Shown one piece after another: positions 26,231-49,509 of a stretch of DNA of 64,000 bases; positions within the stretch are counted from its first letter, which is position 1, and every line of letters begins with the position of its first letter. A program made the translations under genes and the position numbers. Below the pieces are notes generated by a model, which made no database searches, was not told where the DNA came from, and saw only the letters and a program-made list of their open reading frames with translations. The stretch is taken from the NCBI GenBank assembly GCA_963717935.1, contig CAVQXP010000004.1, positions 608,001-672,000 on the forward strand, written 5' to 3'. Origin of the DNA: Candidatus Eiseniibacteriota bacterium. GTDB taxonomy: Bacteria; Eisenbacteria; RBG-16-71-46.

Positions 26231-26386
26231 CTGGTCTCCTCCGGCGGGTGGCCCCGGTCCATGCAGCCCTGAAGATAGCCGCAAGGGGGCCCGAATCCCA
26301 ACCTAAGGCCCGCGGCGGACTTGCCGATAACTCCCGCAGGTCCGCTGTCCCGCGTCTCCAGAACTCCCGGCATGGAGTACCGCCTG

Positions 26387-31802: not shown

Positions 31803-31955
31803 AGCGCGGCACGTCATCCTTTGCGGTCCTCCCTCCTGGGTCACCAGCCCGCCATGGGCTGTGGGCTCGCTACCTTTGCCTGTCTGGCCGTGGCCGTACC
31901 GGGCCCCGGGGACGGCGCGTCCACGCTCCGGAGCCGGAGCACGGGACCGATCTCG

Positions 31956-32354
31956 ATGACCGTCGAACGCCGCGAGCGGCTGACACCCGAGCACCGGCTG
32001 ACCTCGTCGCTGCAGCATGCGGCGGTCAAGGAGTCGGGCGTGGCCTTCCGGGGCCGGCACTGCCTGATGCTGGTGTTGACGCGTCCGGGTGAGCCGACCC
32101 GCTTCGGCTTCGTCGCGAGCCGCAAGGCCGTGGGTGGGGCGGTCCAGCGCAACCGGGCCCGCCGCCGTCTGCGGGAGCTGGTGCGCCGCCGCTGGCCGCG
32201 CCTGAGCGAGCACGGCTACTGGATCGAGTTCATCGCCCTCCGCGGAGTGCTCGCCGCGCCACACCAGGAGCTGGCCACCGAAGTGGAGCACCTGCTGGCA
32301 CGTGCCGGGGCGCTCGCGCCCACACGCATCCCCGGGGCCCTGGGTCATGCGTAG
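31956..32354 (+). CDS. rnpA: Ribonuclease P protein component
   Basis: [22 protein letters not shown]; synteny. Confidence 0.95.
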
Positions 32355-32556
32355 CCCGGCGCTCCTGCTCCTGCGTCTCTACCAGGTGCTGATCTCGCCG
32401 GCCTTCCGCGGTTCCTGCCGTCACCTGCCCTCGTGCTCGGAGTACGCGCGTGAGGCCGTCGAACGCCACGGTGCGACTCGCGGACTGTGGCTCGCCCTGC
32501 AGCGTCTCCTGCGCTGCCACCCGCTCGGCTCGAGCGGATACGACCCGGTGCCCTGA
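32347..32556 (+). CDS. yidD: Membrane protein insertion efficiency factor
   Basis: YQ..ISP, CR..PSCSEY, RC.P...GYDPVP. Confidence 0.95.
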
Positions 32557-32558
32557 CT

Positions 32559-34403: not shown

Positions 34404-34785
34404 ACCGCGTGATGCCGCGGTGGACCGCGCGAACGGTGGCGCGGGGCCGCGCTCCCGGTCCGGTTCTCATCTGTTGTGGTCAGGGAGGTCGTACAGAGCT
34501 AGTCTAGAAGTACCCGAACGCGGTTGGGTCCGGACTCGCCACGCAGGCATCTCGTGCCCGCCGTGGATCCTCCGGCCCGATTCGCCTCCGCCGTGCGGGC
34601 GTCTCGCGGTCCCTTCATGGGCACCTGGCGGGCGTTCCGGCGAGGCTGCGAGAGGAAACACCCGCTGGCCGGGGGCCGGCGGGTCGGGGTCCGCCCCACC
34701 ATTCATGGTTCGCTTGCAGCGCGAGGGCAGGCATTCCAGGGTTCGCCTTGCCGCCCGGACGCGATGCGCAGGACTGAGGTGACCG

Positions 34786-36363
34786 ATGGCCCACATGGGC
34801 GATGTTTTCGAAGGCAGGACACTGGATACGGCGGTGACAAAGGGCCTGGACGCGCTGGGCCTCTCCCGCGCTGAAGTGATGATCACCATCCTCGAAGAGG
34901 GCTCGGGCGGATTTCTCGGCATCGGAGCGCGGCCCTACAGGGTGCGGATGATGCGGCGCCCCGGTGGCCCCCCCCTCCTGGATGCCGACGAACGGAGCCG
35001 TCGCGGAGCGGGGCGTGGCCGCCGCGATCGTGAGCGTGGAGCGACCACGGGACGCCCGGGGGAAGGAAGCCGCGGGTCCGGGGAGCGGCGCGATCGGCCG
35101 CGCGACCGGGGCGATGAGCGCAAGCGTGGCGAGCCGCGGCCGGAGCGTTCCGCCGAGCGCGGCGAGCGGCGGCCGGAGCGTTCCGCCGAACGTGGTGAGC
35201 GGCGGCCGGAGCGTTCCGCCGAACGCGACGAGCGGCGGCCGGAGCGTTCCGCCGAGCGGGGCGAGCGGCAGCCGAAGCGTTCCACCGAACGCGACGAGCG
35301 GCGGCCGGAGCGTTCCGCCGAGCGGGGTGAGCGGCGGCCGGAGCGTTCCGCCGAACGTGGCGAGCGGCGGCCGGAGCGTTCCGCCGAACGCGACGAGCGG
35401 CAGCCGGAGCGTTTCACCGAGCGCGACGAGCGGTGGCCGGAGCGTTCTGCGGAGCGCGACGAACGGCGTGGGGACCGTCCAGCTCCTCCGGAAGTCCAGG
35501 GCCCCGGAGCCGAAGCTCAAGGTGCGGGTGATCTCGACGGTGGCGAGGACCGCCGTCGTCGCCGCCGTGGCCGTCGGGGTGGGCGTCGCCGCCACGGTGA
35601 GGGTGCGGAGGGCCGGAGCGAGGCCGGGTTCTCGCCGCGCGAGTCCTCCGAGGAGCGTGGACCTGTTCATGAGGATCTCCCGGCGGAACGCGCCCCGGTC
35701 CACGATGAGTGGCCCATGGAGCGCGAGGTCTACGACGAACCGCCCGCTGTCCAGGTGGAGACGGCCGAGGCGCCGGAGCGCTTCGAGCCGCCGGTGCGCC
35801 GTGAGCCGCTGGAGCGCCCTGCGCGCGATCTCCCCCGCGAACCACGTCCCGAGACGTTCGACGGCCCCGGCCTCTCGGCCGACGAGTTGATCGCCCAGAG
35901 CACGCGCGTGACCGGGGATCTCCTCAAGGCCATGGGTTTTGAAGCCAAGATCAGCGCCACGGTGGACGGCAACCACGTGGATGTCACGGCAGAGGTCGCA
36001 ACGGACGAGGAACTGCTCACCGGCCGCAAGGGCGAGGTGAGGCAGGCCCTGCAGCACCTGCTCAATCGCATCCTCAACCGGGGCGAGGTCAGCCGCTACC
36101 ACCTGCAGCTCGAGATCAATGATTTCTGGAAGCGGCGCGAGGAGGAGTTGCGCGACCTGGCCCGCTCGCTGGCGGACGAGGCGATCGCCAGCGGTGGCGA
36201 GGCGGTGACCGAGTACCTGAACTCGCAGGAGCGGCGCATCGTCCACGTCACGCTCCGCGAGGACGCCCGCGTGAAGACCTATGCCCTGGGCACGGGCATG
36301 ATCAAACGCGTTGCGATCGCGCCGGCCGATTTCGAAGGCGGCCCGAGAGACGAGAGCGACTAG
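34786..36363 (+). CDS. jag: RNA-binding protein Jag/KhpB/EloR (Jag_N, KH, R3H) with long repeat-containing linker
   Basis: EEGSGGFLGIG (Jag_N), L.G.KG....ALQ.L (KH), ERRIVH (R3H); synteny after yidC. Confidence 0.92.
   Translation: MAHMGDVFEGRTLDTAVTKGLDALGLSRAEVMITILEEGSGGFLGIGARPYRVRMMRRPGGPPLLDADERSRRGAGRGRRDRERGATTGRPGEGSRGSGERRDRPRDRGDERKRGEPRPERSAERGERRPERSAERGERRPERSAERDERRPERSAERGERQPKRSTERDERRPERSAERGERRPERSAERGERRPERSAERDERQPERFTERDERWPERSAERDERRGDRPAPPEVQGPGAEAQGAGDLDGGEDRRRRRRGRRGGRRRHGEGAEGRSEAGFSPRESSEERGPVHEDLPAERAPVHDEWPMEREVYDEPPAVQVETAEAPERFEPPVRREPLERPARDLPREPRPETFDGPGLSADELIAQSTRVTGDLLKAMGFEAKISATVDGNHVDVTAEVATDEELLTGRKGEVRQALQHLLNRILNRGEVSRYHLQLEINDFWKRREEELRDLARSLADEAIASGGEAVTEYLNSQERRIVHVTLREDARVKTYALGTGMIKRVAIAPADFEGGPRDESD
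35137..35466 (+). repeat. 10 x 33-nt coding tandem repeat (RPERSAERGER)
   Basis: Counted in the translation of jag. Confidence 0.95.
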
Positions 36364-36381
36364 CCCGGTTCGAACTGGTTC

Positions 36382-36418
36382 GGCGCCGGGCTCTCTCGAG
36401 GGCCCGGCGCCTTTCTTT
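36382..36418 (+). terminator. Intrinsic terminator-like hairpin between jag and mnmE
   Basis: GGCGCCGGGCTCTC-TC-GAGGGCCCGGCGCC followed by TTTCTTT. Confidence 0.75.
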
Positions 36419-36430
36419 GGAGCGGTCCCC

Positions 36431-37888
36431 ATGCTCGACCTCGACGACACCATCGCCGCCATCGCCACGGCCACCGGGGCCGCTGGCCTCGCGGTGGTGC
36501 GCGTGAGCGGTTCCTCCGCGCTCACCATCGCGGACGCGGTGTTCGAGGGCGCGCGGTTGTCGGAGGCGCCCTGCCACACGCTCCACCATGGCTGGGCCGC
36601 GTGGCCGGAGGCCGCGCAGGGATCCCGGGCGGACGGCCACCCGGTCGCGGGCCGCCCGGCATCCGCCGCTCCGGCCGGGCCGGCACGGGCGCCCCGTGCC
36701 CGGCTCGACGAGGTGGTCGCCGCCGTGTTCCGCGCTCCGCGCTCGTACACGCGCCAGGATGTGGTCGAGCTTTCCTGCCACGGCGGAGCGCTCTCCGCCG
36801 GGCGCGTGCTTGCGGCGTTGCTTGCGGCCGGGGCGCGTCCGGCGCGTCCCGGCGAGTTCACGTTGCGCGCCTTCCTCAACGGACGGCTCGATCTGACCCA
36901 GGCCGAGGCGGTGGCCGACCTCATCCACGCCGAGACGGAAGGGGCGCACGCGCTGGCGCTGGCGCAGTTGCGCGGCGAGCTCTCGCGGCAGCTCGCCACG
37001 ATCGCCGAGGCCCTGCGCGACGCCGTGACCGAGGTCGAGGCGCGCGTGGACTTCGCCGAGGACGTGGGGGGCGTCGAGGTGCCCGGGCACGTCCTCGACC
37101 GGATCATCGGGGCCGGGTCCGCGCTCACCGCGCTCCTCGAGGGCGCGGCCTACGGACGCGCGCTGCGCGAGGGCGTGCGGGTCGCCCTGGTCGGGCGGCC
37201 CAACGTGGGCAAGTCGTCGCTCTTCAACGCGCTCGTGGACGAGCGGCGCGCGATCGTGACCCCGGTTCCGGGGACGACGCGCGACCTGGTGAGCGAGGCG
37301 ATCGAGGTGGCCGGCGTGCGCGTGACGCTCGCCGATACGGCGGGCCTGCGCGAAGGCGGCGACGAGGCCGAGAGCGAAGGCGTGGCCCGCGCGCGCGCGG
37401 CGCTCGAGGAGAGCGCGGTCGTGCTGTGGGTCGTGGACGCCTCGGCGCCGCTGGACGCGGAGGACCTGCGAATCGCCGCGCGGCTCGCGGACCGCCGTGT
37501 GATCCTCGCGCTGAACAAGTGCGACCTGCCGGGCGTCGTGGAGGTCCGCGCGATCGAGGCGTCGCTCGGCGCCGGGCCCTTTGCGACGGTCACGACCTCC
37601 GCGACCCGGGGCGACGGGATCGCGGAGCTGAAATCGGCGCTGGGACGGCTGTTCGCGGGAGCGGGCGGGTTCGCAGGCGTGGTCGCCAACCCCCGCCACG
37701 CAGAGGCCCTCGGGCGTGCGCGGGAGGCCCTCGGGCGCGCGCGTGCGGTGGCCGTGGATGGCGCGCCCGGGGAGATCGTGTCGCTCGAGTTGCACGAGGC
37801 ACTCCAGGCCATCGGCGAGGTGACGGGCGAGGCGGTGGACGAGGATCTGCTCGAGCGCATCTTCAGCCGCTTCTGCATCGGCAAATGA
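36431..37888 (+). CDS. mnmE: tRNA modification GTPase
   Basis: DTIAAIAT, CHGG, GRPNVGKSS, GTTRD, DTAG, NKCD, FCIGK. Confidence 0.97.
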   Translation: MLDLDDTIAAIATATGAAGLAVVRVSGSSALTIADAVFEGARLSEAPCHTLHHGWAAWPEAAQGSRADGHPVAGRPASAAPAGPARAPRARLDEVVAAVFRAPRSYTRQDVVELSCHGGALSAGRVLAALLAAGARPARPGEFTLRAFLNGRLDLTQAEAVADLIHAETEGAHALALAQLRGELSRQLATIAEALRDAVTEVEARVDFAEDVGGVEVPGHVLDRIIGAGSALTALLEGAAYGRALREGVRVALVGRPNVGKSSLFNALVDERRAIVTPVPGTTRDLVSEAIEVAGVRVTLADTAGLREGGDEAESEGVARARAALEESAVVLWVVDASAPLDAEDLRIAARLADRRVILALNKCDLPGVVEVRAIEASLGAGPFATVTTSATRGDGIAELKSALGRLFAGAGGFAGVVANPRHAEALGRAREALGRARAVAVDGAPGEIVSLELHEALQAIGEVTGEAVDEDLLERIFSRFCIGK

Positions 37889-39867
37889 GCGCGTTCGACG
37901 TGGTGGTGGTGGGCGCGGGACACGCCGGCTGCGAGGCGGCCGCGGTGTGTGCGCGACTCGGGCTGCGCACCGCGCTCGTGAGCGCGGACCCCGGTGGCAC
38001 CGCGCGCATGTCGTGCAATCCGGCCATCGGTGGCATCGCCAAGGGGCACATGGTCCGGGAGTTGGACGCGCTCGGCGGCCTGATGGGGCTCGCGACGGAC
38101 CGCGCGGGCATCCAGTTCCGGATGCTCAACCGCGGCCGCGGCCCGGCCGTCTGGTCGCCGCGCGCACAGTGCGACAAGGCCCGCTACACGCTCGAGATGG
38201 CACGGTTGCTCGAGGGCGTCGTCGGGCTCGAGCGCGTGACCGGCGTGGTGGAGCGCGTGCTGCTCGAGCGCGGCGCGGTCGCGGCAGTGGAGCTCGCCGG
38301 CGGGCGGCGGTTGCGGTGCCGGGCGGCCGTCGTCACGCCCGGCACGTTCCTCGACGCGCTCATCCACATCGGTCCGCGCAAGTCCGAAGGCGGGCGCCTC
38401 GGGGAGCACGCTTCACGGGCGCTGAGCGAGAGTCTCGCCGCGCTCGGGCTCGAGCGCGGGCGCCTCAAGACCGGCACGCCGCCGCGCCTCCACCGCGACT
38501 CGATCGACTGGGATGCGCTGAAGCCGCAGCACGGCGACGAGCCGCCCGTGCCGTTCTCGCACTGGACGGAGACTCTCGAGGTCGAGCAGGTCCCGTGCTG
38601 GCTCACCCGCACCAACGCCCGCACGCACGAGGTCATCCGCGCCAACCTGCGACACTCGCCGCTCTTCTCGGGCGAGATCCGCGGACGTGGGCCGCGGTAC
38701 TGCCCGTCGATCGAGGACAAGGTGGTGCGGTTCCCGGGGAACGCGTCCCACCAGATCTTCCTCGAGCCCGAGGGGCGGGACGTGCCCGAGATCTACGTGA
38801 ACGGGATGTCCTCGAGCATGCCCGAGGAGGTGCAGCTCGAGTTCGTGCGCAGCGTGCGCGGGCTCGAGCGGGCGGTGATGCTGCGCCCTGGCTACGCCGT
38901 CGAATACGATTTCGTGCTGCCGCACCAGCTCGCGCCGACGCTCGAGGTGAAGCGCGTGCCAGGCCTGTTCCTGGCGGGACAGATCTGCGGCACCTCGGGC
39001 TACGAGGAGGCCGCGGTGCAGGGCCTCGCGGCGGGAGTGAACGCCGCGCACCGGCTGCTGGGGCGCGAGCCCTTCGTGCTGCGGCGCGATCAGGCCTACG
39101 CGGGCGTTCTCGTGGACGACCTCGTCACGCGCGAGCACTTCGAGCCGTATCGCATGTTCACCTCGGCCGCCGAGCACCGGCTATTGCTCCGCGCCGACAA
39201 CGCCGACGAGAGACTCGCCGCGATCGGCCACGGGCTCGGTCTGCTGACGGACGGCCAGGTGGCGCGCGTGCGCGCGAAGTACGACGCGATCGAGGCGGAG
39301 GAGCGCCGGCTGGCGCGCGTGACGGTCCGGGTCGCGGCGTGCGAGGTCGCCGCCGCCGCGTTCGGGGCACCGGTGGACGACGCGGAGGAGATGACGCGCG
39401 CGGCCGGCGCCGTGGCCACGGCGTGCGATGGCGCGACGCGCGCGCCGGTGGAGGCGGCTTCCGCGGCGGTGCGGTCGACCGCGCCGGGTCCTTCCATGCG
39501 CGGTCCGGTCAGTGCCCTCGAGTCCCTTGCGCGTCCCGGGGCCACGTATCAGGGGCTGCGATCGCTCGGCGTGGCCACGGACCTGCCCGCGACGTGGGGC
39601 GAGTGCCTTGAAGTGCGTGTGCGCTACCGCGGCTATATCGAACGCCAGCGTCGCGTCGCGGCCCAATCGGCGCGGTTGGAACACCTGGAGTTGCCCACGG
39701 CGCTGTGGGCCGGAGAACTGAACGGTCTCTCCCGCGAAGCCCGCGAGAAGCTCGCGCACCGGCAGCCCGCGACGGTCGGGCAGGCCGCGCGCATCGCGGG
39801 CGTGTCGCCCGCGGATGTCGCCGTGCTTCTGGTGCACGCGCGCCGGCTCAGGAGCCCGTCCGAGTAG
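37885..39867 (+). CDS. mnmG: tRNA uridine 5-carboxymethylaminomethyl modification enzyme
   Basis: GAGHAG.EAA, MSCNPAIGG, KTGTPPR, YCPSIEDK, GYEEAA.QG. Confidence 0.97.
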   Translation: MSAFDVVVVGAGHAGCEAAAVCARLGLRTALVSADPGGTARMSCNPAIGGIAKGHMVRELDALGGLMGLATDRAGIQFRMLNRGRGPAVWSPRAQCDKARYTLEMARLLEGVVGLERVTGVVERVLLERGAVAAVELAGGRRLRCRAAVVTPGTFLDALIHIGPRKSEGGRLGEHASRALSESLAALGLERGRLKTGTPPRLHRDSIDWDALKPQHGDEPPVPFSHWTETLEVEQVPCWLTRTNARTHEVIRANLRHSPLFSGEIRGRGPRYCPSIEDKVVRFPGNASHQIFLEPEGRDVPEIYVNGMSSSMPEEVQLEFVRSVRGLERAVMLRPGYAVEYDFVLPHQLAPTLEVKRVPGLFLAGQICGTSGYEEAAVQGLAAGVNAAHRLLGREPFVLRRDQAYAGVLVDDLVTREHFEPYRMFTSAAEHRLLLRADNADERLAAIGHGLGLLTDGQVARVRAKYDAIEAEERRLARVTVRVAACEVAAAAFGAPVDDAEEMTRAAGAVATACDGATRAPVEAASAAVRSTAPGPSMRGPVSALESLARPGATYQGLRSLGVATDLPATWGECLEVRVRYRGYIERQRRVAAQSARLEHLELPTALWAGELNGLSREAREKLAHRQPATVGQAARIAGVSPADVAVLLVHARRLRSPSE

Positions 39868-39895
39868 TCCGAAAGCGCGGCGGGGGAATCAGTCC

Positions 39896-40098
39896 CGGCG
39901 TGGGCGCCGGTCGCGGTGCGCGGCGCGGCGAGAGACCCAGGCGTGGCGCGCCGTCCGGCGCGAGCGCCGGGCGTGGTGCGCGGTCCGGCGCGAGACCTAG
40001 GCGTGGCGCGCGGTCCGGCGCAAGCGCCGGGCGTGGCGCGCGGTCCAGCGCGGGACCCAGGCGTGGTGCGCGGTCCGGCGCGAGCGCCGGGCGTGGCA
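39896..40098. repeat. About 7 x 30-nt tandem repeat (alternating A/B units) between mnmG and rsmG
   Basis: Units CGGCGCGAGCGCCGGGCGTGGYGCGCGGTC and CGGCGCGAGACCYAGGCGTGGYGCGCGGTC. Confidence 0.85.
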
Positions 40099-40215
40099 CT
40101 GGGCGAGCAGAGGCACCATGCGCTCGCCCAGTGCCACCCCCGACGCCCGCTACTTCAACGCCTGCATTCGTCGTTACGGTGTCGGGTGGCCCGGCGCGTG
40201 CTAGAGTGCGCGGTC

Positions 40216-41466
40216 ATGAGAGAGCGCCGTCCGAGAGCCAGGCCGTCGAAGGGAACCCGTCGTCCTGCAAGGGGCGCTGCCGCCACCGGTGAACGCCGTG
40301 CCCGTCCGGGCGCAGGCAAGCCGCTCCGCGCGGGCGAGCGCCCGGCGCGTCCGGGCGCGGGCAAGCCGTTTCGCGCGGGCGAGCGTCCCGCACGTCCGGG
40401 CGCGGGCAAGCCGTTCCGCGCGGGCGAGCGTCCCGCGCGTCCGGGCGCGGGCAAGCCGTTTCGCGCGGGCAAGCGTCCCGCACGTCCGGGCGCGGGCAAG
40501 CCGTTTCGCGCAGGCGAGCGTCCCGCGCGTCCGGGCGCGGGCAAGCCGTTCCGCGCAGGCGAGCGCCCGGCGCGTCCGGGCGCGGGGAAACCGTTCCGCG
40601 CGGGCAAGCGCCCGGCGCGAAGGGGATCTGCCTCTCGCGAGACCTTCGGCGCACGACCGGAAGGCGGTTCCTGGGCCCCCGAATTGCGCTCTTCACGCAG
40701 CCGGAACCGGACCGGGGCTAAATCAAGGAACACCAAGAATGAAAATGGATTAAGACGTTCGGCTCCGGCCGGGCCCGTCAGGCGCGAGCCGTCGCGGGAC
40801 ATCGGGAAGTTGCTCGACCGCCAGCCCTGGGACTCGCTCACGCCGCACCTGCTGCGTGCGGGGACGGACATCGTCGAGGTATTGCCGCGCATCAGGCGGT
40901 TCGCCGAGCTCCTGCTGGAATGGAATCGTGGCTTCTCGAACCTGATCTCCACCAGCGACGAGACCCGGCTGGTGCAGCGACACATCCTTGAATCGCTCCA
41001 GCCGGCCCACTGGATCAAGTCCAGTGGCGCCCGGCGCTGGCTGGACTTCGGTTCTGGCGGCGGCCTCCCGGCGCTTCCCCTGGCGCTCGCCGGGATCGGG
41101 GAGAGCTGGACCCTGGTCGAGTCACGAAGGAACAAGACGTTATTCCTGCGTAAGGTAATTCAGGAGTTTGGGTTGAAGAACATAGAAGTGGAGCTGGCGA
41201 GGCTCGAGTCGCTCTCTGAAGAAGCGGACCGCCTTGGCAAGTTCGACGGCTTCACGTCGCGTGCGACGTTGCGGCTCGGACCGACGCTGGCACTTGCAGC
41301 AGATTGGGTTACACCGGGTGGCCTTGCATACCTCTGGAAGGGCAGCCGGAGGGAGCAGGAGATGGCCGAGGACCGCCGGTGGAAGGACTCCTGGGATCAG
41401 GACGGCTTGTTCGACATTGATTCCGGTCAGACTGTCGTGGCGAGATTCGTCAGAAAGACAAATTGA
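40216..41466 (+). CDS. rsmG: 16S rRNA m7G527 methyltransferase with long basic N-terminal extension
   Basis: WN...NL.S, H..ES, LDFGSGGGLP, ES..K..FL, SRA, KG in the C-terminal half; synteny; TG-C-TAGAGT just upstream of ATG 40216. Confidence 0.88.
   Translation: MRERRPRARPSKGTRRPARGAAATGERRARPGAGKPLRAGERPARPGAGKPFRAGERPARPGAGKPFRAGERPARPGAGKPFRAGKRPARPGAGKPFRAGERPARPGAGKPFRAGERPARPGAGKPFRAGKRPARRGSASRETFGARPEGGSWAPELRSSRSRNRTGAKSRNTKNENGLRRSAPAGPVRREPSRDIGKLLDRQPWDSLTPHLLRAGTDIVEVLPRIRRFAELLLEWNRGFSNLISTSDETRLVQRHILESLQPAHWIKSSGARRWLDFGSGGGLPALPLALAGIGESWTLVESRRNKTLFLRKVIQEFGLKNIEVELARLESLSEEADRLGKFDGFTSRATLRLGPTLALAADWVTPGGLAYLWKGSRREQEMAEDRRWKDSWDQDGLFDIDSGQTVVARFVRKTN
40294..40608 (+). 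repeat. 7 x 45-nt coding tandem repeat (RPARPGAGKPFRAGE/K)
   Basis: Counted in the translation, in frame with rsmG. Confidence 0.93.
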
Positions 41467-41486
41467 TGCGTTGATTCGTCACGCCG

Positions 41487-41502
41487 GGTTTCACGTGGAA
41501 CA
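41487..41502. promoter_or_regulatory. parS site upstream of parA
   Basis: GGTTTCACGTGGAACA versus consensus TGTTTCACGTGAAACA. Confidence 0.9.
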
Positions 41503-41603
41503 ATCCTCTTGTTCCGCTCAGCTCCGCGCTGTTATCTTGCCCCCACACCTCCCCCGTTGACCTCAGCCAGGTGGGCAAGGAATCGGCCCCCGCACGTAAG
41601 GAA

Positions 41604-42365
41604 ATGGGACGAATAATCTCAGTTGCCAGCCAGAAGGGCGGCGTTGGCAAGACCACTACTGCGATCAATCTGGGCGCGTGCCTGGCGCAGGAGAGCCGGC
41701 GCGTGCTCATCGTTGATGTGGACCCGCAGGCGAACGCGACGAGCGGGCTCGGGATCAACGGCAATGACCACAAGACCACGATCTATGAGGTCCTCATCGG
41801 CCATGCGGAACTGGCCGAGGCAGTCCTCCCGACGGCGCTGGCGAACCTCGATGTGGTTGTTTCCGGGCAGCGGCTGTCCGGCGCCGAGGTCGAGCTCGTC
41901 GGGGTGATGGCGCGCGAGACCAGGCTCAAGCAGGCCGTTTCCAAGGTGCGCGACCAATACGACTACATCCTGGTGGACAGCCCGCCTTCGCTCGGGTTGC
42001 TCACCGTGAACGCGCTCACGGCCTCTGACTCGGTGCTGATACCCTTGCAGTGCGAGTACCTCGCGCTCGAGGGGTTGACGCAGTTGATTGGTGCCATCCG
42101 ATTGGTTCAGGACCACCTGAATCCTGGCCTCAGAATCGAGGGCGTCCTGTTGACCATGTACGACTCGCGGCTCAACCTTTCGCAGCAGGTCGCGGATGAA
42201 GCGCGGAAATTCTTTGCCGACCGCGTCTACCGCACGGTGATCCCCAGGAACGTGCGGCTGAGCGAGGCGCCCTCCTTCGGGAAGCCCATAGTCCTGTACG
42301 ATCCTCACAGCACAGGCGCCGAGAGTTACCGAGACCTGGCGCGGGAGGTCCTTGACCATGCATAA
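41604..42365 (+). CDS. parA: Chromosome partitioning ATPase ParA/Soj
   Basis: KGGVGKTT, D.DPQ.NAT, D.PPSLG, PRNVRL.EAPS.G; AAGGA RBS. Confidence 0.97.
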   Translation: MGRIISVASQKGGVGKTTTAINLGACLAQESRRVLIVDVDPQANATSGLGINGNDHKTTIYEVLIGHAELAEAVLPTALANLDVVVSGQRLSGAEVELVGVMARETRLKQAVSKVRDQYDYILVDSPPSLGLLTVNALTASDSVLIPLQCEYLALEGLTQLIGAIRLVQDHLNPGLRIEGVLLTMYDSRLNLSQQVADEARKFFADRVYRTVIPRNVRLSEAPSFGKPIVLYDPHSTGAESYRDLAREVLDHA

Positions 42366-43221
42366 GAAGGTACTGGGGCGGGGGCTTGAAGCGTTGATAC
42401 CGATTTCCGGCACCGCAACGGCCACGCCCGAGGCTCCCCGGGGCGGAACGTCTGAGTTGCCGGTCGATGAGATCGTCGCGAACCCCTACCAGCCGCGCAC
42501 TCGTTTCGATGAAGAGGCCATCCAGGAATTGGCGGCTTCCATCAGGGCTACGGGCGTTCTCCAGCCCGTCCTCGTCCGCCACACCCCCGGCGCCAGCGGC
42601 TACCAGCTGGTGGCCGGAGAGCGTCGCCTTAGAGCTGCCATTGTTGCTGGCCTCAAGAAGATACCGGTAATCATCAAGGACGTGCAGGACCGGGAGATGA
42701 TGGAGTTGTCCCTGGTCGAGAACATCCAACGCGAGAACCTGAACCCGATGGAGGAGGCGAAGGCCTACCAGACCCTGGTCAAGGAGCTAGGACTGACCCA
42801 CGACCAGGTGTCCGAACGCGTTGGCAAACAGAGGGTCTCGATCACCAACGCGCTGCGGCTCCTCGGCCTTCCGGACGAGGTCCAGGAGATGGTTTCACGT
42901 GAAACACTGAGTGCCGGACATGCACGGGCCCTGCTCGCGATTGACAAGTCCGCGGACCAACTGGCTGCGGCGCGCTACGTCCAGAGCAGGGGATTCTCGG
43001 TGCGACGCACCGAGGCCTTCGTGCGGCGCAAGCTGCGCCGGCTGCACTCGCGGCCTCGCCCGCCGAAGCTCAGCGGGCTGCGGGAGTGGGAGGTCCGGCT
43101 CCAGCAGAAGTTCGCCACACACGTGGCGATCACGCCTGGCCGCAAGGGCGGCAAGGTCGAGTTCGAGTACTACGGGCAGGAGGATCTGGAGCGTCTCTTC
43201 GAAGCCTGGGGAGTTCTCTAG
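42358..43221 (+). CDS. parB: Chromosome partitioning protein ParB
   Basis: LGRGL.AL, NP.QPR, GERR.RA, EN.QRE.L, HTH, GHARAL. Confidence 0.97.
   Translation: MHKKVLGRGLEALIPISGTATATPEAPRGGTSELPVDEIVANPYQPRTRFDEEAIQELAASIRATGVLQPVLVRHTPGASGYQLVAGERRLRAAIVAGLKKIPVIIKDVQDREMMELSLVENIQRENLNPMEEAKAYQTLVKELGLTHDQVSERVGKQRVSITNALRLLGLPDEVQEMVSRETLSAGHARALLAIDKSADQLAAARYVQSRGFSVRRTEAFVRRKLRRLHSRPRPPKLSGLREWEVRLQQKFATHVAITPGRKGGKVEFEYYGQEDLERLFEAWGVL
42891..42906. promoter_or_regulatory. parS site inside parB
   Basis: GGTTTCACGTGAAACA (15/16 consensus), read as VSRET. Confidence 0.92.
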
Positions 43222-43291: not shown

Positions 43292-43696
43292 ATGTTCCGT
43301 TCGCGCGCACCCGAGGTTGAGGAAGTTCCTGTGCCCAGCGCGCTGATCGGCGTTGGATCGAGTTTCCACGGCACCCTGATGGTTCACGGCACGCTTCGCA
43401 TCGACGGAGAATTCGAGGGGGACATCCTCGACTGCGACCGGCTCGAGATCGGCGAGCATGGTTTGATGCGGGCGGACGTCGAGGTGAAGGAGGCGGTGAT
43501 CCGCGGGCGCGTCCAGGGCAATGTCCGGGCGCTTGGCTCACTCGAGATGAAGCAGGGCGCCCACATCGAGGGCGACGTGGCGGCCGTGAACGTGGTGATC
43601 GAGACCGGCGTCTATTTCACGGGGCGCTGCACGATGCTGGACACGGGGACCGAGGGTGTCCAGATTCAGACGGAGAACACCCGCGCGCGTGGCTGA
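43292..43696 (+). CDS. Bactofilin (polymer-forming cytoskeletal protein)
   Basis: IG.G..F.G.L...G.LRIDG.F.G.I, G.V.GNV, GA.I.GDV, IE.G..F.G.C.M; GAGGAG RBS. Confidence 0.93.
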   Translation: MFRSRAPEVEEVPVPSALIGVGSSFHGTLMVHGTLRIDGEFEGDILDCDRLEIGEHGLMRADVEVKEAVIRGRVQGNVRALGSLEMKQGAHIEGDVAAVNVVIETGVYFTGRCTMLDTGTEGVQIQTENTRARG

Positions 43697-43802
43697 CCTC
43701 CTGCGTGTGGCACCGTGCCCACGGCCGCGATGGGGGGCGCCCATGCGATTCCCACGGCTCCTGCCCCCGGGATCGGCGCCCGGCTCGGACTCAAACGAGA
43801 TC

Positions 43803-45212
43803 ATGCGGCCGAGCGTCCCGCTCCTGGCGAGTCTTGCCGTCCGGCTGTCAGTGTGTCTCGTTGTGGCCTCTGTTACCTGTTGTCTTGCATGTGATTACAG
43901 TATTTCGGCCGGCCCTGATTTGGCCTCGCTCTGGATCCGCGCCCAGGTGGGTTCGTCCGAGTGTGCCACTGCCGTCCCGGACACCGCGGACATCGCGCCC
44001 CGGCCGGTGTCGCTTGCCTCGCTGCCGTGGCCGGACGGCACGCAGGTACTCCGCTTCGAGGACCTCGAAGGCGCAATCCTCGTGCGCGCGAGGCTTGTCT
44101 CGGCGTCCGGCCGTGACACGAGCGGGGTCCTTATCCTCGACACGGGCGCCGGTTTCCTCGCCCTCGACCTCGACCTCGCCCGCCTGTTCGGCGTTGCGGA
44201 CTACGCCTCGGGGGCCGCCGCGGTGGACCTGGCCGCTCGGCCGCTCGCCCGTCTCGAGCTGGGTGGGCTGCAGGTGGACCAGGTCTGGCCCGTGCTCACG
44301 GTGGACGCGGGCGTGATCCGGCGGGTCACCGGCCGGCCCGTCCTGGGGTTGCTCGGGCACGCGCTGTTCCGGGACCGGGTGGTCATGCTCGACTACCTCG
44401 AGGGCATCCTGGTCCTGCTGCCACCCGAGACGGGTCCGGGCTCGCCCTTCAGGGCCGTGGGTCTGGCCCTGGCGCCCGGGGCGGTGCCTGTCCCCTTCCG
44501 GCTGGCTGGCGACGGAAAGGTGCTCGTGAGGGCCCGGGTCTCGGGACGGCGCGGGCCGTCCGCGGAGGAGCTCACCCTGATCGTGGACACGGGGGCGACG
44601 AAGTGCGTGTTCTTCCGGGAGGCGCTCGACCGGCGCCTCCCGGGCTGGGGATCCTGGCCGGCGCTTCGAGGGCTCGGGGCCCCGACGCTCACCGGGGACG
44701 CGAGCGCCGAGCTGGTGCGTGTCCCCGGGATCGAGTTCCGCGCGCCCGGGGCGTCCGTCGCCCGGGGTGGCGTGGACGCGGCCGTGCTCCAGGGGGACCT
44801 GGGCAGGGCGCTCGCTCGAGCCGCCGGCGAGCCGGTGGAGGGTCTGCTCGGCTACTCGTTCCTGAAGCACTACCGGATCGCCCTGGACTACCCACGCCGT
44901 CTGCTCTGGCTCGACGGTTCCCGGGGCGACGTCGCGGACCGTCTCGAGGAGTATTCCCACCCCGGACTTCAGCTCGAGAGCGTGGGTGGAGAGGTCCGGA
45001 TCTTCGCGGTCGCGGAGGGGTCCCCGGCGGCGCACGCGGGGATCCTGGCGGGCGACGTGCTGGTGGCGATCGACGGCGAATCCGTCACGGACCTCGACGT
45101 CGTGGCGGTCGCGCGGAAGCTCGAGGGTGCGCCCGGAACCGCGCTCTTGCTGGGGCTGCGACGTGGTCCACGAGAGTGGACCTGTCGCGTGGTCCGCAAG
45201 CTGCTGCTCTAG
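43803..45212 (+). CDS. Two-domain retropepsin-like aspartic protease with C-terminal PDZ; start uncertain
   Basis: ILDTGA and IVDTGA, GLLG twice, PDZ GSPA..AGI..GD....IDG. Confidence 0.88.
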   Translation: MRPSVPLLASLAVRLSVCLVVASVTCCLACDYSISAGPDLASLWIRAQVGSSECATAVPDTADIAPRPVSLASLPWPDGTQVLRFEDLEGAILVRARLVSASGRDTSGVLILDTGAGFLALDLDLARLFGVADYASGAAAVDLAARPLARLELGGLQVDQVWPVLTVDAGVIRRVTGRPVLGLLGHALFRDRVVMLDYLEGILVLLPPETGPGSPFRAVGLALAPGAVPVPFRLAGDGKVLVRARVSGRRGPSAEELTLIVDTGATKCVFFREALDRRLPGWGSWPALRGLGAPTLTGDASAELVRVPGIEFRAPGASVARGGVDAAVLQGDLGRALARAAGEPVEGLLGYSFLKHYRIALDYPRRLLWLDGSRGDVADRLEEYSHPGLQLESVGGEVRIFAVAEGSPAAHAGILAGDVLVAIDGESVTDLDVVAVARKLEGAPGTALLLGLRRGPREWTCRVVRKLLL

Positions 45213-45506
45213 CCTCGCGGGACCCCCTCGACATCCCGGAAACGGCGTCCCGATATTTCGTGAAACAGTCGTCTATTTGGAATCCTGCAGACTGGCAACA
45301 TGATGCCGCACATATGAATTGCCGATTTGTCCAAAATCACGACATTTCGTGAATAACCGACTTGAAGGGAAGTGACTGCGGGCTCTCCCGCGACCCCCTC
45401 GGAGGCGCCTCGCCCGCTCGCCGGAACGCTCGAAAGAGCACGTCCCGGCCCTGGCCGAACGTCGCTCTGCGGGCATCCGTGATGGGTCCCGTCGAGCTGC
45501 TCTTCG

Positions 45507-45965
45507 CTAGCTCGCCGCGGCGAGATCCTCGTCTGGCGCATGCAGGGCACGGAGGCGCTCGCACACCTTCTCGACCCGCATCGCGCTCACCGTCTCGACC
45601 GAATAGGGCTCGTCCCAGATCAGGTTCCCGCGCAGCCAGACTCTCAGTTCGGGGTGGGCCTGCAGGAGGGTGAGACCGGTTCGTCCCTTGAGCTGTCGGA
45701 CGGTGCCCGAGACACTCTGCGTGGGGCTCAGCCCGAGGACCAGATGGACGCGCTGCGGCGCGGCCGCGAACTCGACCAGAGTGAAGTCCAGCTCGTCACA
45801 GGTCTGCTGGATCAGGTCGCGGAGGGTTCTGACGTGGCGGTCCCTCAGCACCGGCCGGCGGCCCCGCGTACTCCAGGTGATCACGTAGTGGAGCTGGCTC
45901 CGGTAGACCGGCTCCCAGCGTCCACGCAATGCCTCATCGACCTCGGGGGCGAGATTGCGGTTCAT
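45507..45965 (-). CDS. IS200/IS605 TnpA (Y1 HUH) homologue with degenerate active site
   Basis: LHY.I.W.TR.RRPVL, VHL.L.L.P..SVS..V..LKG.T, .W...Y.V.TV motifs; DHVH is QRVH and YI.NQ is RLRAL; AGGAGG RBS. Confidence 0.85.
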   Translation of the reverse strand: MNRNLAPEVDEALRGRWEPVYRSQLHYVITWSTRGRRPVLRDRHVRTLRDLIQQTCDELDFTLVEFAAAPQRVHLVLGLSPTQSVSGTVRQLKGRTGLTLLQAHPELRVWLRGNLIWDEPYSVETVSAMRVEKVCERLRALHAPDEDLAAAS

Positions 45966-45983
45966 GTTCGTGCCTCCTGTTTG

Positions 45984-45999
45984 CTGAACATCCGTGCAG
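45984..45999 (-). promoter_or_regulatory. Putative LexA box upstream of the TnpA-like gene
   Basis: CTGCAC-GGAT-GTTCAG, 5 nt upstream of the SD; matches the palindrome in the lexA promoter. Confidence 0.75.
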
Positions 46000-46103
46000 T
46001 ACACGTACACACTTCTAGATGCCATCAACTGCCTGGGGGGTTCATCCGGTCGACCGCGGTCGCGACTCCCGGGCGGCCGGTGCCCCGGCCCCGGCCACGC
46101 GCC

Positions 46104-46703
46104 CTAGCCGCCCACGGTCCGCAGCACGCCGGTGACCACGCCCAGGATCCGGAAATCCTGGCCCTCGGTCACCTGGATGGGGTCGTATTTCTCGTTCGCC
46201 GGCACGAGCTCGATCCGGTCGGGCCGGGGCCGGTAGTACTTCACCGTGGCCTCCTCGCCGATCAGAGCCACCACGATCGCCCCGGGCTTTGCCTGGTCGC
46301 GCTGCCGGACGATGACGACGTCGCCCTCGAGGATGCCGGCGTCCACCATGCTGTCGCCCCGCACCCGCAGTGCGAACAAGTCGCTCGAGTCGCCAAACGC
46401 CTGTCCCACGTCCAGCCGGTCTTCGATGCACTCCTCGGCCAGGATGGGCTGGCCCGCCGCGACCCGGCCGATCAGCGGGACGCCGATGCCCCGCCCGGTC
46501 GAGGCCAGGCCGCAGCCCCGCGAGACCCCGCCACGGTGCTTCAGGTAGCCCGCCTTTTCGAGCATGGTCAGGTAGTAACGGACCCCGTTGGTCGATGAGA
46601 TGCCGAAGGCCTTCCCGATCTCGCGGATCGTGGGAGGCATGTCGTGCTCATGCTGGAAGCTCCGGATGTAGGACAGGATCTTTCGCGCTCGGTCGTTCAA
46701 CAT
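46104..46703 (-). CDS. lexA: SOS repressor LexA
   Basis: PPT.REI wHTH, GRVAAG cleavage site, GDSM catalytic Ser, ATVK catalytic Lys. Confidence 0.97.
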   Translation of the reverse strand: MLNDRARKILSYIRSFQHEHDMPPTIREIGKAFGISSTNGVRYYLTMLEKAGYLKHRGGVSRGCGLASTGRGIGVPLIGRVAAGQPILAEECIEDRLDVGQAFGDSSDLFALRVRGDSMVDAGILEGDVVIVRQRDQAKPGAIVVALIGEEATVKYYRPRPDRIELVPANEKYDPIQVTEGQDFRILGVVTGVLRTVGG

Positions 46704-46752
46704 GACTCGCGCCCCCGGTTGGCCTCGTCCACGATGGACGTCGACGGACGGC

Positions 46753-46782
46753 AGGTTAGTGCACAGGCGTGCAGCGTGTCAA
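46753..46782 (-). promoter_or_regulatory. lexA promoter with LexA-box-like palindrome in the spacer
   Basis: TTGACA-18 nt-TAACCT; the spacer contains CTGCAC-GCCT-GTGCAC (46759-46774). Confidence 0.8.
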
Positions 46783-47472
46783 GGGGCGATTTCGGGCCGT
46801 AACGGCGCGGGCTCCTGCTGGCCGGCGCCCCGTGCACGGCGGCTACGCCGCGTGACGCGGGGCGACAGCGACGCGAAGCGCAGGAGGTGCACCGGGCTCA
46901 GGACGTCCATGCGCTGACGCCGCCTGGTACTCCGTGGACAGTCGCGCCCGGCGGACGCTGTCACGCTCGGCGCGGCGGAGGCGATCGCCCCCGCGGGAAT
47001 CACGACTTGCGCGTTTCCGCCGTCCGCGTCACGTGTTGGTCCGCAGATTGCGATGGGTCGAGATCGAGGTCGCGAGACCTCTGCACGAGAGGCAAGGAGC
47101 GGGGGCCGGGTCCGTGGAGGTTGGCCGCAATCGGGGGCCGGTCGGCTGAAGCGATCCGCCCCGCCACCTTGTCGGTCGAGCAGGGCGATCAGGCCCGGCA
47201 CCACATGACCGTGGAGCCGGGCCCCGTCCTTTATAGGGTGCGCAGCGGTCTGCCACTTCCAGCGCTGGGTGAGCCCGGCAGACCCGTTGCGCGGCAGGGG
47301 GGCTCGCAGGACTTCCCGCGCGGGCCGTTGATGAACCCCGCTGCGCTTGGCGCTTCGCCGTGTGAATGGAGCGCGTCGTCGCTTCCTTGACTTCGCTCTG
47401 CGCCATCGCGAAGACTCCCCGCGCGCACCATCCGGTTCCGTGTCGTGTCCCGATCGCCTGGAGACCCCATCC

Positions 47473-49509
47473 ATGAGGCGTGCCCGCCAGTTCTTCACCT
47501 GCCTGTCGCTCCTCATGCTGTCGGTCCCTTCCGGCGCGGGCCCCGCGCGATGCGCCGCACCGGCGGACACGGCGAGCGTCGAGGTCGAGGGAGTGACCAT
47601 CTTCGGCACGCGCCCGCTCACGACGCGAGGCGGCAGCAGCGCCATTCGCGCCGTGCTCGATTCGCTGCCGATCCCGGCGGCCGGCAGCCTGGAGCAGGTG
47701 CTGCGCAGTCTGCCCGCGCTCCACGTGCGCACGAACAGCCGCGGCGAGGCCGAGCTCTCGGTGCGGGGCTCCGAATCGCGACAGGTGGCGGTGCTCCTCG
47801 ACGGTGTGCCGCTCACGCTGAGCTGGGATGGCCGCACCGACGTGTCGGTGATCCCGGTGGGCGCGCTCCAGCAGGTGACGCTGGTGCGAGGGCTCTCCAC
47901 GCTGCTCTCCGGACCGAACGTGCTCGGTGGCGCGATCGAGTTCGAGAGCGGCGCGGCCGGCGGACGGCCCGACCCGTCTTCGTTCCAGGTCCGCTCCGGC
48001 GCCGATCAGGTCGGGGCATTCGGCGCCTCGGCCACGATCACCGCTCCCAGGGCGACGCCGGGCGGGGTCCTCACCCTGCGTGCCGGGATCGGTCATCGTG
48101 ATGCCCCGGGCGTCCCGCTCGCCCGGGGGGTCGTCGAGCCGATCCCCTCGGATGATCTCAGGATCAACACGGACCTCACCGAGACCGACGGGTTCGCCTC
48201 GGCCCGCTTCGACCGTGGCGACGGGGGCTGGGTGTCGCTGGCCGGCTCCGCGTTCCGCGCCGAGCGAGGCATCGCCGCGGAACTGGGCGTGGACGGGCCC
48301 CGCTTCTGGCGCTATCCGTACGTCGCCCGCTCGCTCACGGTGCTTTCGGGCGGGAGCGGCGTGCGTCGCGCGCCCTGGGGCGGCGTATCGAGCCTGCGGG
48401 CGAGCTTCGGCCTCGACGTCGGCCGAACGGAGATCGACGCGTTCGATTCGCGGACCTACGAGAACCTCGTCAGCGAGGAAGACGGCGATCAGCGCACGCT
48501 CTCGATGCGCATCCTGGGGACACAGACGTTCGGCCGCCGGGCCGATCTCCGGCTCGGGGTCACGAGCGGCGATCTGACCTACGACGAGCACCTCCAGCCG
48601 GGCAGCACCAGCCGTTACCGGCACCGGCTGTGGAGCGTCGCCGGGGAGTCCATGGTCCGGCTGCCCTTCGCGGCCGGCGGCGGGCTGGACGAGATCGACC
48701 TGAGCCTGGGTGGGGCGTTCGACCGCTCCACCAACCCGCTCGCGGGCGGCAAGACCGCCCTCGGCCCTCGTAACGAGTGGGGCGGGCGCGCCGGCGTGAG
48801 CGCCCTGCTCGCCGACGGAGCCGTGACAATGCACGCGAGCACGAGCCGGCGGGCGCGATTCCCGTCGCTGCGCGAGCTCTACTCGGGGGCGCTCGGCAAG
48901 TTCGACCCCAACCCGGACCTCGTGCCCGAGAAGCTCGTCGCGACCGAGGCCGGCGTCACGCTGCGCGGTCCATCGGGAACGCTTCAGCTGGTCGGCTACC
49001 GGCAGCGCCTGAGCGACGCCGTCGTGCGCATCAAGGTCGGAAGCCTGTACCGCCGCGTGAACCAGGAGGGCATCCGGAGCACCGGGGTGGAGTTGCTGGG
49101 TTCGCGCACCATCGGGTGGCTCACGCTCGGAGGGAACCTCGTCGCCCAGTCGGTAGAGCTGCTCGATCCGAGCGCCGCGCTCGAACATCCCGAGAACCTG
49201 CCCGAGGTGAGCGGCGGCCTGCACGTGGAGATGTCGCTCCCGCACCGCCTGGCGCTCGGCGCGGGCACGCGTTACATCGGCGAGCAGTTCGCGATCGATC
49301 CCAACAGCGGGGACCTGGCCACGCTTCCCGCCCGTGCGCGGGTGGACGCGGATCTCGGCCACACCTGGAGCTTCGGACCGGGCCCGGGCGGGGTCTCGAC
49401 GCTCCACGCCCGGATCGCGGCGGAGAACCTGACGGACGAAGCGATCTACGACGCGTTCGGTCTCCCCGAGCCGGGCCGCACGATCCGCCTCGAGCTGAGA
49501 CTGCAGTAG
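47473..49509 (+). CDS. TonB-dependent receptor
   Basis: Signal peptide, plug (VRG...V.VLLDG.P, V.LVRG....L.G....GG.I), NPDL.PE, ENLTD, GRT...L barrel end. Confidence 0.92.
   Translation: MRRARQFFTCLSLLMLSVPSGAGPARCAAPADTASVEVEGVTIFGTRPLTTRGGSSAIRAVLDSLPIPAAGSLEQVLRSLPALHVRTNSRGEAELSVRGSESRQVAVLLDGVPLTLSWDGRTDVSVIPVGALQQVTLVRGLSTLLSGPNVLGGAIEFESGAAGGRPDPSSFQVRSGADQVGAFGASATITAPRATPGGVLTLRAGIGHRDAPGVPLARGVVEPIPSDDLRINTDLTETDGFASARFDRGDGGWVSLAGSAFRAERGIAAELGVDGPRFWRYPYVARSLTVLSGGSGVRRAPWGGVSSLRASFGLDVGRTEIDAFDSRTYENLVSEEDGDQRTLSMRILGTQTFGRRADLRLGVTSGDLTYDEHLQPGSTSRYRHRLWSVAGESMVRLPFAAGGGLDEIDLSLGGAFDRSTNPLAGGKTALGPRNEWGGRAGVSALLADGAVTMHASTSRRARFPSLRELYSGALGKFDPNPDLVPEKLVATEAGVTLRGPSGTLQLVGYRQRLSDAVVRIKVGSLYRRVNQEGIRSTGVELLGSRTIGWLTLGGNLVAQSVELLDPSAALEHPENLPEVSGGLHVEMSLPHRLALGAGTRYIGEQFAIDPNSGDLATLPARARVDADLGHTWSFGPGPGGVSTLHARIAAENLTDEAIYDAFGLPEPGRTIRLELRLQ

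Follow-up and report, generated by a model that had tools for sequence, protein, structure and literature searches.

What is a transposase homologue without its catalytic tyrosine doing directly downstream of lexA, the gene of the SOS repressor? This question is raised by a stretch of 64,000 nucleotides (nt) from a Candidatus Eiseniibacteriota bacterium (assembly GCA_963717935.1, contig CAVQXP010000004.1, positions 608,001 to 672,000 of the forward strand; the whole stretch is hereafter called the window), in which an intact gene related to tnpA, the Y1 transposase gene of the IS200/IS605 insertion sequences (IS), lies behind lexA on the minus strand. The data presented below make us highly confident that this tnpA-like gene is domesticated, tyrosine-less and linked to lexA. 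In addition, they moderately favour a wider reading, namely that it encodes a phylum-wide exapted, non-transposing, dimeric, SOS-induced protein of the TnpA fold, which probably binds structured single-stranded nucleic acid.

A preliminary description of the locus, made from the sequence alone, had reported an intact open reading frame (ORF) of 152 amino acids (aa) with an AGGAGG Shine-Dalgarno sequence, directly downstream of lexA on the same strand and without a tnpB, together with a palindrome 5 nt before the Shine-Dalgarno sequence that matches the palindrome of the lexA promoter. All of this can be read in the window, where no tnpB is present among the genes flanking the tnpA-like gene. 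The elements of the locus are the following.

45507-45965, minus strand: tnpA-like gene, an intact 152-aa ORF with its ATG at 45963-45965, encoding a protein with the predicted fold of TnpA (IS200/IS605) and no catalytic tyrosine.
46104-46703, minus strand: lexA, 199 aa, scoring 183.4 bits with TIGR00498 (cut-off 110.95) and containing the Peptidase_S24 and LexA_DNA_bind domains.
45966-46103, minus strand: spacer of 138 nt between lexA and the tnpA-like gene, with 0 terminator-like sites and a folding z-score of 0.50.
45973-45978, minus strand: Shine-Dalgarno sequence AGGAGG, 7 nt 5' of the ATG; GGAGG is kept across loci.
45985-45998, minus strand: putative second LexA box, TGCACGGATGTTCA, upstream of the tnpA-like gene.
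46777-46782, minus strand: -35 hexamer TTGACA of the lexA promoter; when anchored on the box, the consensus of 66 lexA upstream regions retains TTGAC.
46760-46773, minus strand: putative LexA operator of lexA, TGCACGCCTGTGCA, a perfect palindrome filling the spacer between -35 and -10.
46753-46758, minus strand: -10-like hexamer TAACCT, 18 nt after the -35; TAnnnT is kept across loci.
45744-45755, minus strand: codons Q71-R72-V73-H74, the degenerate HUH motif of the window lineage, where the family has D/E-H-V-H.
45540-45557, minus strand: codons R137 to H142, in the helix that bears the tyrosine in active TnpA; R137 falls under the catalytic tyrosine.
45510-45524, minus strand: C-terminal tail L-A-A-A-S, with the family pattern [LWF]-A-x-A-[SGC] at the extreme end.

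The distance of 5 nt between TGCACGGATGTTCA and the Shine-Dalgarno sequence is obtained when the flanking C and G are counted with the palindrome. The LexA protein aligns over its full length to solved LexA structures, including the VAAGQP motif with its Ala-Gly cleavage site, the serine of GDSM and the lysine of TVK.

The 152-aa protein is matched by profiles of the Y1 transposases. Specifically, it scores 70.5 bits with the Pfam hidden Markov model (HMM) Y1_Tnp (cut-off 23) and 76.4 bits with the NCBIfam IS200/IS605 transposase model transpos_IS200 (cut-off 55); the NCBIfam model REP_Tyr_transpos gives 33.2 bits, under its cut-off of 80, and the ESM Atlas returned Y1_Tnp clusters only. Residues were aligned to ISDra2 TnpA (2xm3) and DR_0177 (2fyx). 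In this alignment, Q71-R72-V73-H74 falls under D-H-V-H and Y27-V28 under Y-H, R137 stands under the catalytic tyrosine, and L141 stands under the glutamine four residues on. The window protein carries QRVH in place of an HUH motif with both histidines, which the family overall possesses, and it lacks the catalytic tyrosine on the C-terminal helix. At the position of the Gln/Asn metal ligand it has L141 (+4), followed at +5 by the conserved His142 (64/65 orthologues, see below). The HMM matches and the alignment bear out the earlier proposal of a Y1 transposase homologue in which YH has become YV, QRVH stands for the HUH motif and the catalytic tyrosine is lost.

The AlphaFold2 model of the protein has a mean predicted local distance difference test score (pLDDT) of 75.8. 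Its best Foldseek matches in the PDB are the TnpA structures of ISDra2, Sulfolobus (IS200) and IS608, with E-values from 2.8e-9 to 7.6e-6 and template modelling (TM) scores of about 0.6-0.7; the RAYT structure 4er8 is a far weaker match than the IS TnpAs. By this model the protein is shown to retain the predicted TnpA fold. A homodimer was predicted with a score of 0.82, compared to 0.15 for the best of three controls, with runs that share at least 80% of the contacts and a pLDDT of the partner of at least 78. Among solved proteins, 20 of 30 one-chain pairs and 1 of 23 single chains attain the score mark applied. The predicted interface is formed by strands 20-27 and 120-128 together with residues 81-87. 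Since solved TnpA dimers exist, this result may mirror likeness to them and not independent support.

With an arginine in place of the nucleophilic tyrosine, the 5'-phosphotyrosine intermediate needed for transposition is impossible. The active site of IS608 TnpA is described as being assembled in trans, with the HUH motif contributed by one subunit and Tyr127 by the other; the same source reports that mutation of H64, H66 or Y127 inactivates the protein, and that Y127F still forms a DNA complex (PMC3597680). From the behaviour of these mutants it follows that a Tyr-less member of the family cannot transpose but may still bind DNA.

A genome scan for the tnpA-like gene retrieved 66 loci, designated by L numbers (43 from Candidatus Eisenbacteria, 17 from entries named 'uncultured bacterium' or 'bacterium' and six under other names); counts over 67 include the window. 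Counting from the tnpA-like gene to lexA, lexA is found immediately upstream on the same strand in 66/66 loci, with a spacer of 64-237 nt. The gene is intact in 64 of the 66, L065 being frameshifted and L050 truncated. The complete chromosomes OY970178.1 and OY970342.1 contain one locus each, and two loci were found in one assembly only (L016 and L050). In that assembly, L050 (contig CAVSAC010000006.1) is a second lexA-box-gene cassette beside the intact L016, with lexA broken into frames and the gene truncated; it may represent a duplicate in decay, a long-read contig rich in errors or a relative that was binned wrongly. As for the flanks, homologues of parB are present in 49 of the 67 loci, of rsmG in 45, of bactofilin in 32 and of parA in 27.

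Selection on the gene was assessed by the Nei-Gojobori ratio of non-synonymous to synonymous substitution (omega). In the 13 closest pairs, omega ranges from 0.02 to 0.19 for the tnpA-like gene, compared to 0.03-0.23 for lexA in the same pairs, and between the window and L001 the two values are 0.127 and 0.129, respectively; close pairs alone are informative, as synonymous distances saturate in distant pairs. In addition, the pairwise identities of the tnpA-like protein and of LexA are correlated (r = 0.81 over 2016 pairs), which fits joint vertical descent. Judged from these sequence comparisons, the tnpA-like gene is under purifying selection comparable to that on lexA.

These data bear directly on the possibility that the gene is a decaying IS or an annotation artefact. 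The protein does pass the cut-offs of curated transposase HMMs, and the relatives listed are named 'putative transposase' or 'RayT' in the source databases. However, the traits of a mobile element are not displayed: the gene occupies a fixed site beside lexA (66/66), with one locus per complete chromosome and no tnpB; it is intact in 64/66 loci and constant in length, its omega (0.02-0.19) is like that of lexA, and in the window its flanks are unstructured, folding no better than shuffled sequences. This possibility was rejected and has, in our judgement, practically no chance of being right, in keeping with the preliminary description, which had argued that the gene is not a decaying IS.

Residue counts were taken over 65 intact orthologues (64 loci plus the window, L050 and L065 being dropped). 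The position of the catalytic tyrosine is occupied by Arg in 64/65, by Val in L063 and by Tyr in none. Y27, H44, R90, K93, W117, D118, Y121, E124 and R130 are invariant (65/65), while H72 is kept in 63, H74 in 65 and H142 in 64 of the 65. A word-indexed protein search (E <=1e-5) returned 849 proteins; the 120 listed are 63-94% identical to the query, and 152 aa is by far their commonest length. Among the matches listed, R137, H74 and H142 are present in 121/121 aligned database sequences, and position 72 is His in 119/121.

The consensus of the family at the HUH motif is DHVH, and L001 and L002, the closest genome relatives of the window, read Q-H-V-H. H72 has changed to Arg in the window and in P0012, a metagenomic relative with 85% identity; in L042 the change arose independently. 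In a sister-clade representative, P0127 (157 aa, 128 bits), the HUH motif reads E-R-I-H and the tyrosine position is taken by Arg; it also shares the PELRV and GNLVWDE motifs. On this comparison of sequences, loss of the first histidine is a trait of the window lineage, with L042 as an independent case, and not of the family. The earlier claim that only catalytic residues had been selectively lost thus stands for the tyrosine but not for the histidines H72, H74 and H142, which are conserved. Similarly, orthologues had been expected to be single, to lie beside lexA, to have an omega below 1 and to share the substitutions of the window protein; this is true of synteny, of the single locus in complete chromosomes, of omega and of the arginine, but H72R is not shared.

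The retained histidines raise the alternative of a metal-dependent, hydrolytic, structure-specific nuclease acting on single-stranded DNA (ssDNA) or RNA. In such an enzyme, the HUH histidines and His142 would hold a metal, Arg137 would position the phosphate and water would replace the tyrosine, so that hairpins would be processed upon SOS induction. The conservation of H72, H74, H142 and R137 (63/65, 65/65, 64/65 and 64/65) agrees with this proposal, as do the fold and the predicted dimer, which match TnpA. In addition, H142 lies at +5 from position 137, the spacing given for the metal-ligand Gln in class 3 of Quentin et al. (PMC6006769). The first HUH histidine, however, is Arg in the window lineage, L042 and P0127, and the window lineage is under purifying selection (omega of about 0.13); the replacement of H72, together with constraint where measured, argues that the metal chemistry is dispensable. 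To our knowledge, there is no known hydrolytic HUH enzyme, which also counts against the nuclease. From the residues at hand we regard it as unlikely, though worth keeping in view for the consensus (DHVH) form.

A profile search of 1.84 billion representatives returned one full-length protein at 259 bits, then fragments, then P0127, and then canonical Tyr-bearing TnpAs at no more than 90 bits; these gaps in score indicate that the family is a tight, isolated clade. The canonical TnpAs are 22-28% identical to the tnpA-like protein, with R36, H74, P81, K93, P105, W117 and Y121 common to both. In a plasmid collection, none of the 310 matching records reaches 60% identity, and those listed (27-35%) are distant canonical tnpA genes. 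A search at E <=1e-10 among proteins of 267-2000 aa revealed no longer, fused forms, which is weak evidence, and the 64-kb window contains neither other copies of the tnpA-like gene nor canonical Y1 transposases.

These distances are relevant to a function that the preliminary description had considered, in which the protein would block resident IS200/IS605 elements, as a dominant-negative or competitive inhibitor, when DNA is damaged. The shared fold and the TnpA-like predicted dimer interface would suit such a role, and a Tyr-less subunit would be expected to poison active sites that are assembled in trans (PMC3597680). However, an identity of 22-28% to the nearest canonical TnpAs is too low for heterodimers or shared end recognition to be likely, no canonical Y1 transposase is present in the window, and the gene is conserved phylum-wide and in a lexA-like manner, while IS content is volatile. 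The inhibitor is disfavoured by these findings, and we consider it very improbable indeed.

Autoregulation of lexA is near-universal. By this logic, the TGCAC palindrome in the lexA promoter would be the LexA operator of the phylum. The search pattern was a perfect palindrome or one with a single K/M substitution in a half-site. It was found between TTGAC and TAnnnT in 66/66 testable lexA upstream regions (that of L010 is cut off), with GTGCA as the right half in all but L017, which has GTTCA. In the spacer between lexA and the tnpA-like gene, TGCAC-N4-GT(T/G/A)CA is present in 65/67 loci, in most of them at a distance of 31-45 nt from the start codon; GTTCA forms the right half in 61, GTGCA in three and GTACA in one, and the two loci that lack the box are L008 (one mismatch) and L065 (the frameshifted gene, no box). 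The dedicated operator-like box that had been proposed is therefore kept in the family. Outside both positions, the pattern has one match in 685,962 bases of flanks.

In the window, the boxes at 45985-45998 and 46760-46773 share TGCAC-N4-GTNCA. TGCAC-N4-GTKCA occurs at three sites compared to 0.23 expected, a count reached by 0/100 shuffles. The third site (25671-25684), a perfect TGCAC-N4-GTGCA, lies inside a putative esterase ORF (25223-26281, minus strand) and is probably there by chance. The LexA box of Fibrobacter succinogenes, a member of the same superphylum, reportedly has the same half-sites (work by Mazon et al. in 2004). Overall, these motif data make it likely, in our opinion, that the tnpA-like gene is LexA-regulated; if the palindrome is the LexA operator, then LexA would repress the gene and DNA damage would induce it.

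The gene could instead be domesticated without being regulated by LexA, the second box being a promoter or translation-control element that resembles the lexA operator. In this case one could account for the absence of any visible sigma-70-type promoter around the second box, and for the fact that this box is consistently asymmetric (GTTCA in 61/65) and has conserved spacer bases of its own. Yet its TGCAC-N4-GTNCA core is the same as that of 66/66 lexA promoters and occurs once elsewhere in 686 kb, and we hold this explanation to be highly unlikely.

The tnpA-like protein might also regulate the SOS circuit itself, by binding a hairpin of the lexA leader RNA or single-stranded LexA boxes and feeding back on LexA synthesis. 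This would explain a tie to lexA (66/66) that goes beyond co-regulation, and potential targets are at hand, since a hairpin follows the -10 in most lexA leaders and both boxes are palindromes with a stem of 5 bp and a loop of 4 nt. However, the sequence of the leader hairpin differs in the window clade, and ordinary SOS effectors adjoin lexA in other bacteria too; such a feedback regulator, as deduced from the sequences, appears decidedly unlikely. As regards the leaders themselves, most carry GTGCCRGGTYC-loop-GRACC right after the -10, and in the window clade the hairpin is GTCCA-TCG-TGGAC (at about 46725-46745 in the window, minus strand).

The reading that we favour, of an exapted SOS-induced TnpA-fold protein, can be set out as follows. 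An IS200/IS605 Y1 (HUH) transposase would have been taken over by the host across Candidatus Eisenbacteria; LexA would repress the gene via the palindrome, and DNA damage, through RecA-stimulated self-cleavage of LexA, would induce it. The induced dimer would then bind, and neither cut nor rejoin, structured single-stranded nucleic acid, the candidate ligands being hairpins on ssDNA at gaps or stalled forks and possibly an RNA hairpin. That its activity consists of non-catalytic binding to structured ssDNA or RNA is a proposal to which we give slightly less than even weight. The invariant C-terminal tail (A149 in 63/65, A151 in 65/65, S152 in 59/65) may be a partner-binding or degradation signal. 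In its fullest form, the proposal is that of an SOS effector in which a nucleophile-less HUH dimer binds hairpins, possibly including the hairpin form of the LexA boxes, while the tail contacts the replisome or a protease; this we put forward tentatively.

With respect to the tail, we observed that the [LWF]-A-x-A-[SGC] pattern follows acidic residues in the window protein and its orthologues, and that it resembles a docking peptide or a protease tag. IS608 TnpA is thought to touch the beta clamp via its C-terminal region (PMC6006769), which is taken as a lead only.

Several points weigh against the exapted SOS effector. In the window, the flanks of the tnpA-like gene give folding z-scores of 0.50 (upstream spacer) and -1.06 (3' flank), no better than shuffles, and a stem-loop found 3' of the gene in other loci (see below) is absent from the window and has no copies elsewhere in 750 kb, which speaks against it as the ligand. 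In most lineages, a potential three-His site (H72, H74, H142) beside Arg137 is kept; these residues suggest selection for a metal site, which fits catalysis at least as well as pure binding. The LexA operator is a putative one, deduced from lexA autoregulation, and no recA, uvrA or similar gene is present in the 64-kb window. Neither a minus-strand consensus scan nor box-anchored logos of 65 loci revealed a -35/-10 pair for the tnpA-like gene, and in 53/67 loci lexA and the second box are separated by a terminator-like hairpin followed by a T-run. Finally, the synteny count runs from the tnpA-like gene to lexA, and nearly all loci come from metagenome-assembled genomes.

The terminator-like hairpin has a GGGAG/CTCCC stem in 46 loci (e.g. 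L025 and L039) and is missing from the window clade (the window, L001-L008 and L010). In the window, transcription from the lexA promoter may continue into the tnpA-like gene, the second box then acting as an internal operator; at the other loci it probably has a promoter of its own. At the terminator-bearing loci, LexA might act on a distinct promoter that escaped recognition, or it might block read-through in the manner of a roadblock.

The 3' stem-loop was defined by aligning 29 loci, which were picked from 66 candidates by stem score and represent a selected alignment. It consists of a GC stem of 12-16 bp and a loop of 22-28 nt with a CGCATC-like motif, located 3' of the stop codon, and 9/9 predicted pairs show compensatory changes. 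The derived covariance model, R1, gave 27 significant hits in 750 kb, which correspond to 26 of the 29 loci and to L053; every hit lies directly 3' of the gene on the sense strand, as in these examples.

L059:1905-1963, sense strand: 3' stem-loop, found by the covariance model.
L058:6487-6545, sense strand: 3' stem-loop, found by the covariance model.

As the hits are confined to the 3' side of the gene, the element is not a dispersed repeat like the repetitive extragenic palindromic (REP) sequences in the 750 kb searched. It may be a terminator or an element of the 3' untranslated region.

The surroundings of the locus in the window are those of a core chromosome. The gene order is rnpA, yidC, jag, mnmG, rsmG, parA, parB, a bactofilin-like gene and a PDZ protease gene, followed on the opposite strand by the tnpA-like gene and lexA; the set from rnpA to parB spans positions 31821-43218. 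Such a set is typically found near the replication origin, and oriC may be a few kb away from lexA and its tnpA-like neighbour. The pair is flanked by a convergent PDZ/aspartyl-protease ORF (43656-45212) and by a divergent gene for a TonB-dependent receptor (47347-49509). Within the set, no domain match covers the long N-terminal stretches of the ORFs of mnmG (36601-39864, 1088 aa) and rsmG (39916-41466, 516 aa), which may be over-long ORF calls or fusions.

Between the convergent stops of the PDZ protease ORF and the tnpA-like gene there is a gap of 295 nt (45212-45506), with a GC content of 0.53-0.57 compared to about 0.70 nearby. Within it, TTCACGAAAT occurs twice without mismatch on the minus strand, at 45255-45264 and 45344-45353. 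The 9-mer TCACGAAAT is also found 3' of the tnpA-like gene in L002, L005, L007, L008 and L010; in the latter two it forms an inverted pair. This repeat-bearing gap might serve as an operator or encode a small RNA. An Rfam search over 45100-47000 at E <=1 gave a chance miRNA match and nothing else.

How does this locus relate to known systems? The TnpA proteins of ISDra2, IS608 and IS200 share with the tnpA-like protein the HMM match, the fold, a predicted dimer formed via the same edge strands and a set of core residues. Unlike them, it has Arg for Tyr and no Gln at +4, the window protein has also lost the first HUH histidine, and the gene sits at a fixed site by lexA, without a tnpB or, in the window, significant flanking hairpins. 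SOS genes are linked to lexA elsewhere, as dinF is after lexA in Escherichia coli. The tnpA-like gene resembles these in being a gene with a putative LexA box that is kept beside lexA; we know of none among them that derives from a transposase.

The RAYT proteins, or TnpA-REP, have been called 'the first prokaryotic domesticated transposase' (PMC8266576). They too are host-retained, usually single-copy derivatives of the same superfamily; however, RAYTs are described as keeping the HUH motif and the tyrosine (PMC6006769), whereas the tnpA-like protein is under the cut-off of the RAYT model and matches 4er8 weakly. As regards REP hairpins, the one element tested, the 3' stem-loop of 27 loci, has no other copies in the window and the 686 kb of flanks searched. 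ISCR elements, for which SOS control of an HUH transposase is reported (PMC13393415), are alike in that a transposase gene of the HUH superfamily has been placed under SOS, as is proposed here. In contrast, ISCRs are active mobile elements of another HUH family, while the tnpA-like gene is immobile, Tyr-less and phylum-wide.

A 2018 survey of the superfamily gives the HuH and Y motifs as common to all its sequences (PMC6006769). In a literature search with most subscription journals outside its reach, no paper was found that deals with a TnpA linked to lexA or lacking its tyrosine, or with LexA in Eisenbacteria. We regard the tnpA-like gene as a domesticated Y1 transposase, here Tyr-less and probably inside the SOS circuit.

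As curated transposase HMMs pass the protein, annotation pipelines will label it an IS200/IS605 transposase. Domesticated prokaryotic transposases are few, RAYTs being the textbook case, and here a whole phylum keeps a Tyr-less member under selection as tight as that on LexA. The locus yields a candidate LexA operator for Eisenbacteria, an uncultured phylum. It illustrates the use to which the TnpA scaffold can be put once transposition chemistry is gone, and it points to an unstudied SOS function that is testable with recombinant protein. If the proposal is true, the tnpA-like gene would supply the first known case of a core stress-regulon function that arose from an IS200/IS605 transposase, and its product would be the first conserved HUH protein to work in the absence of its tyrosine.

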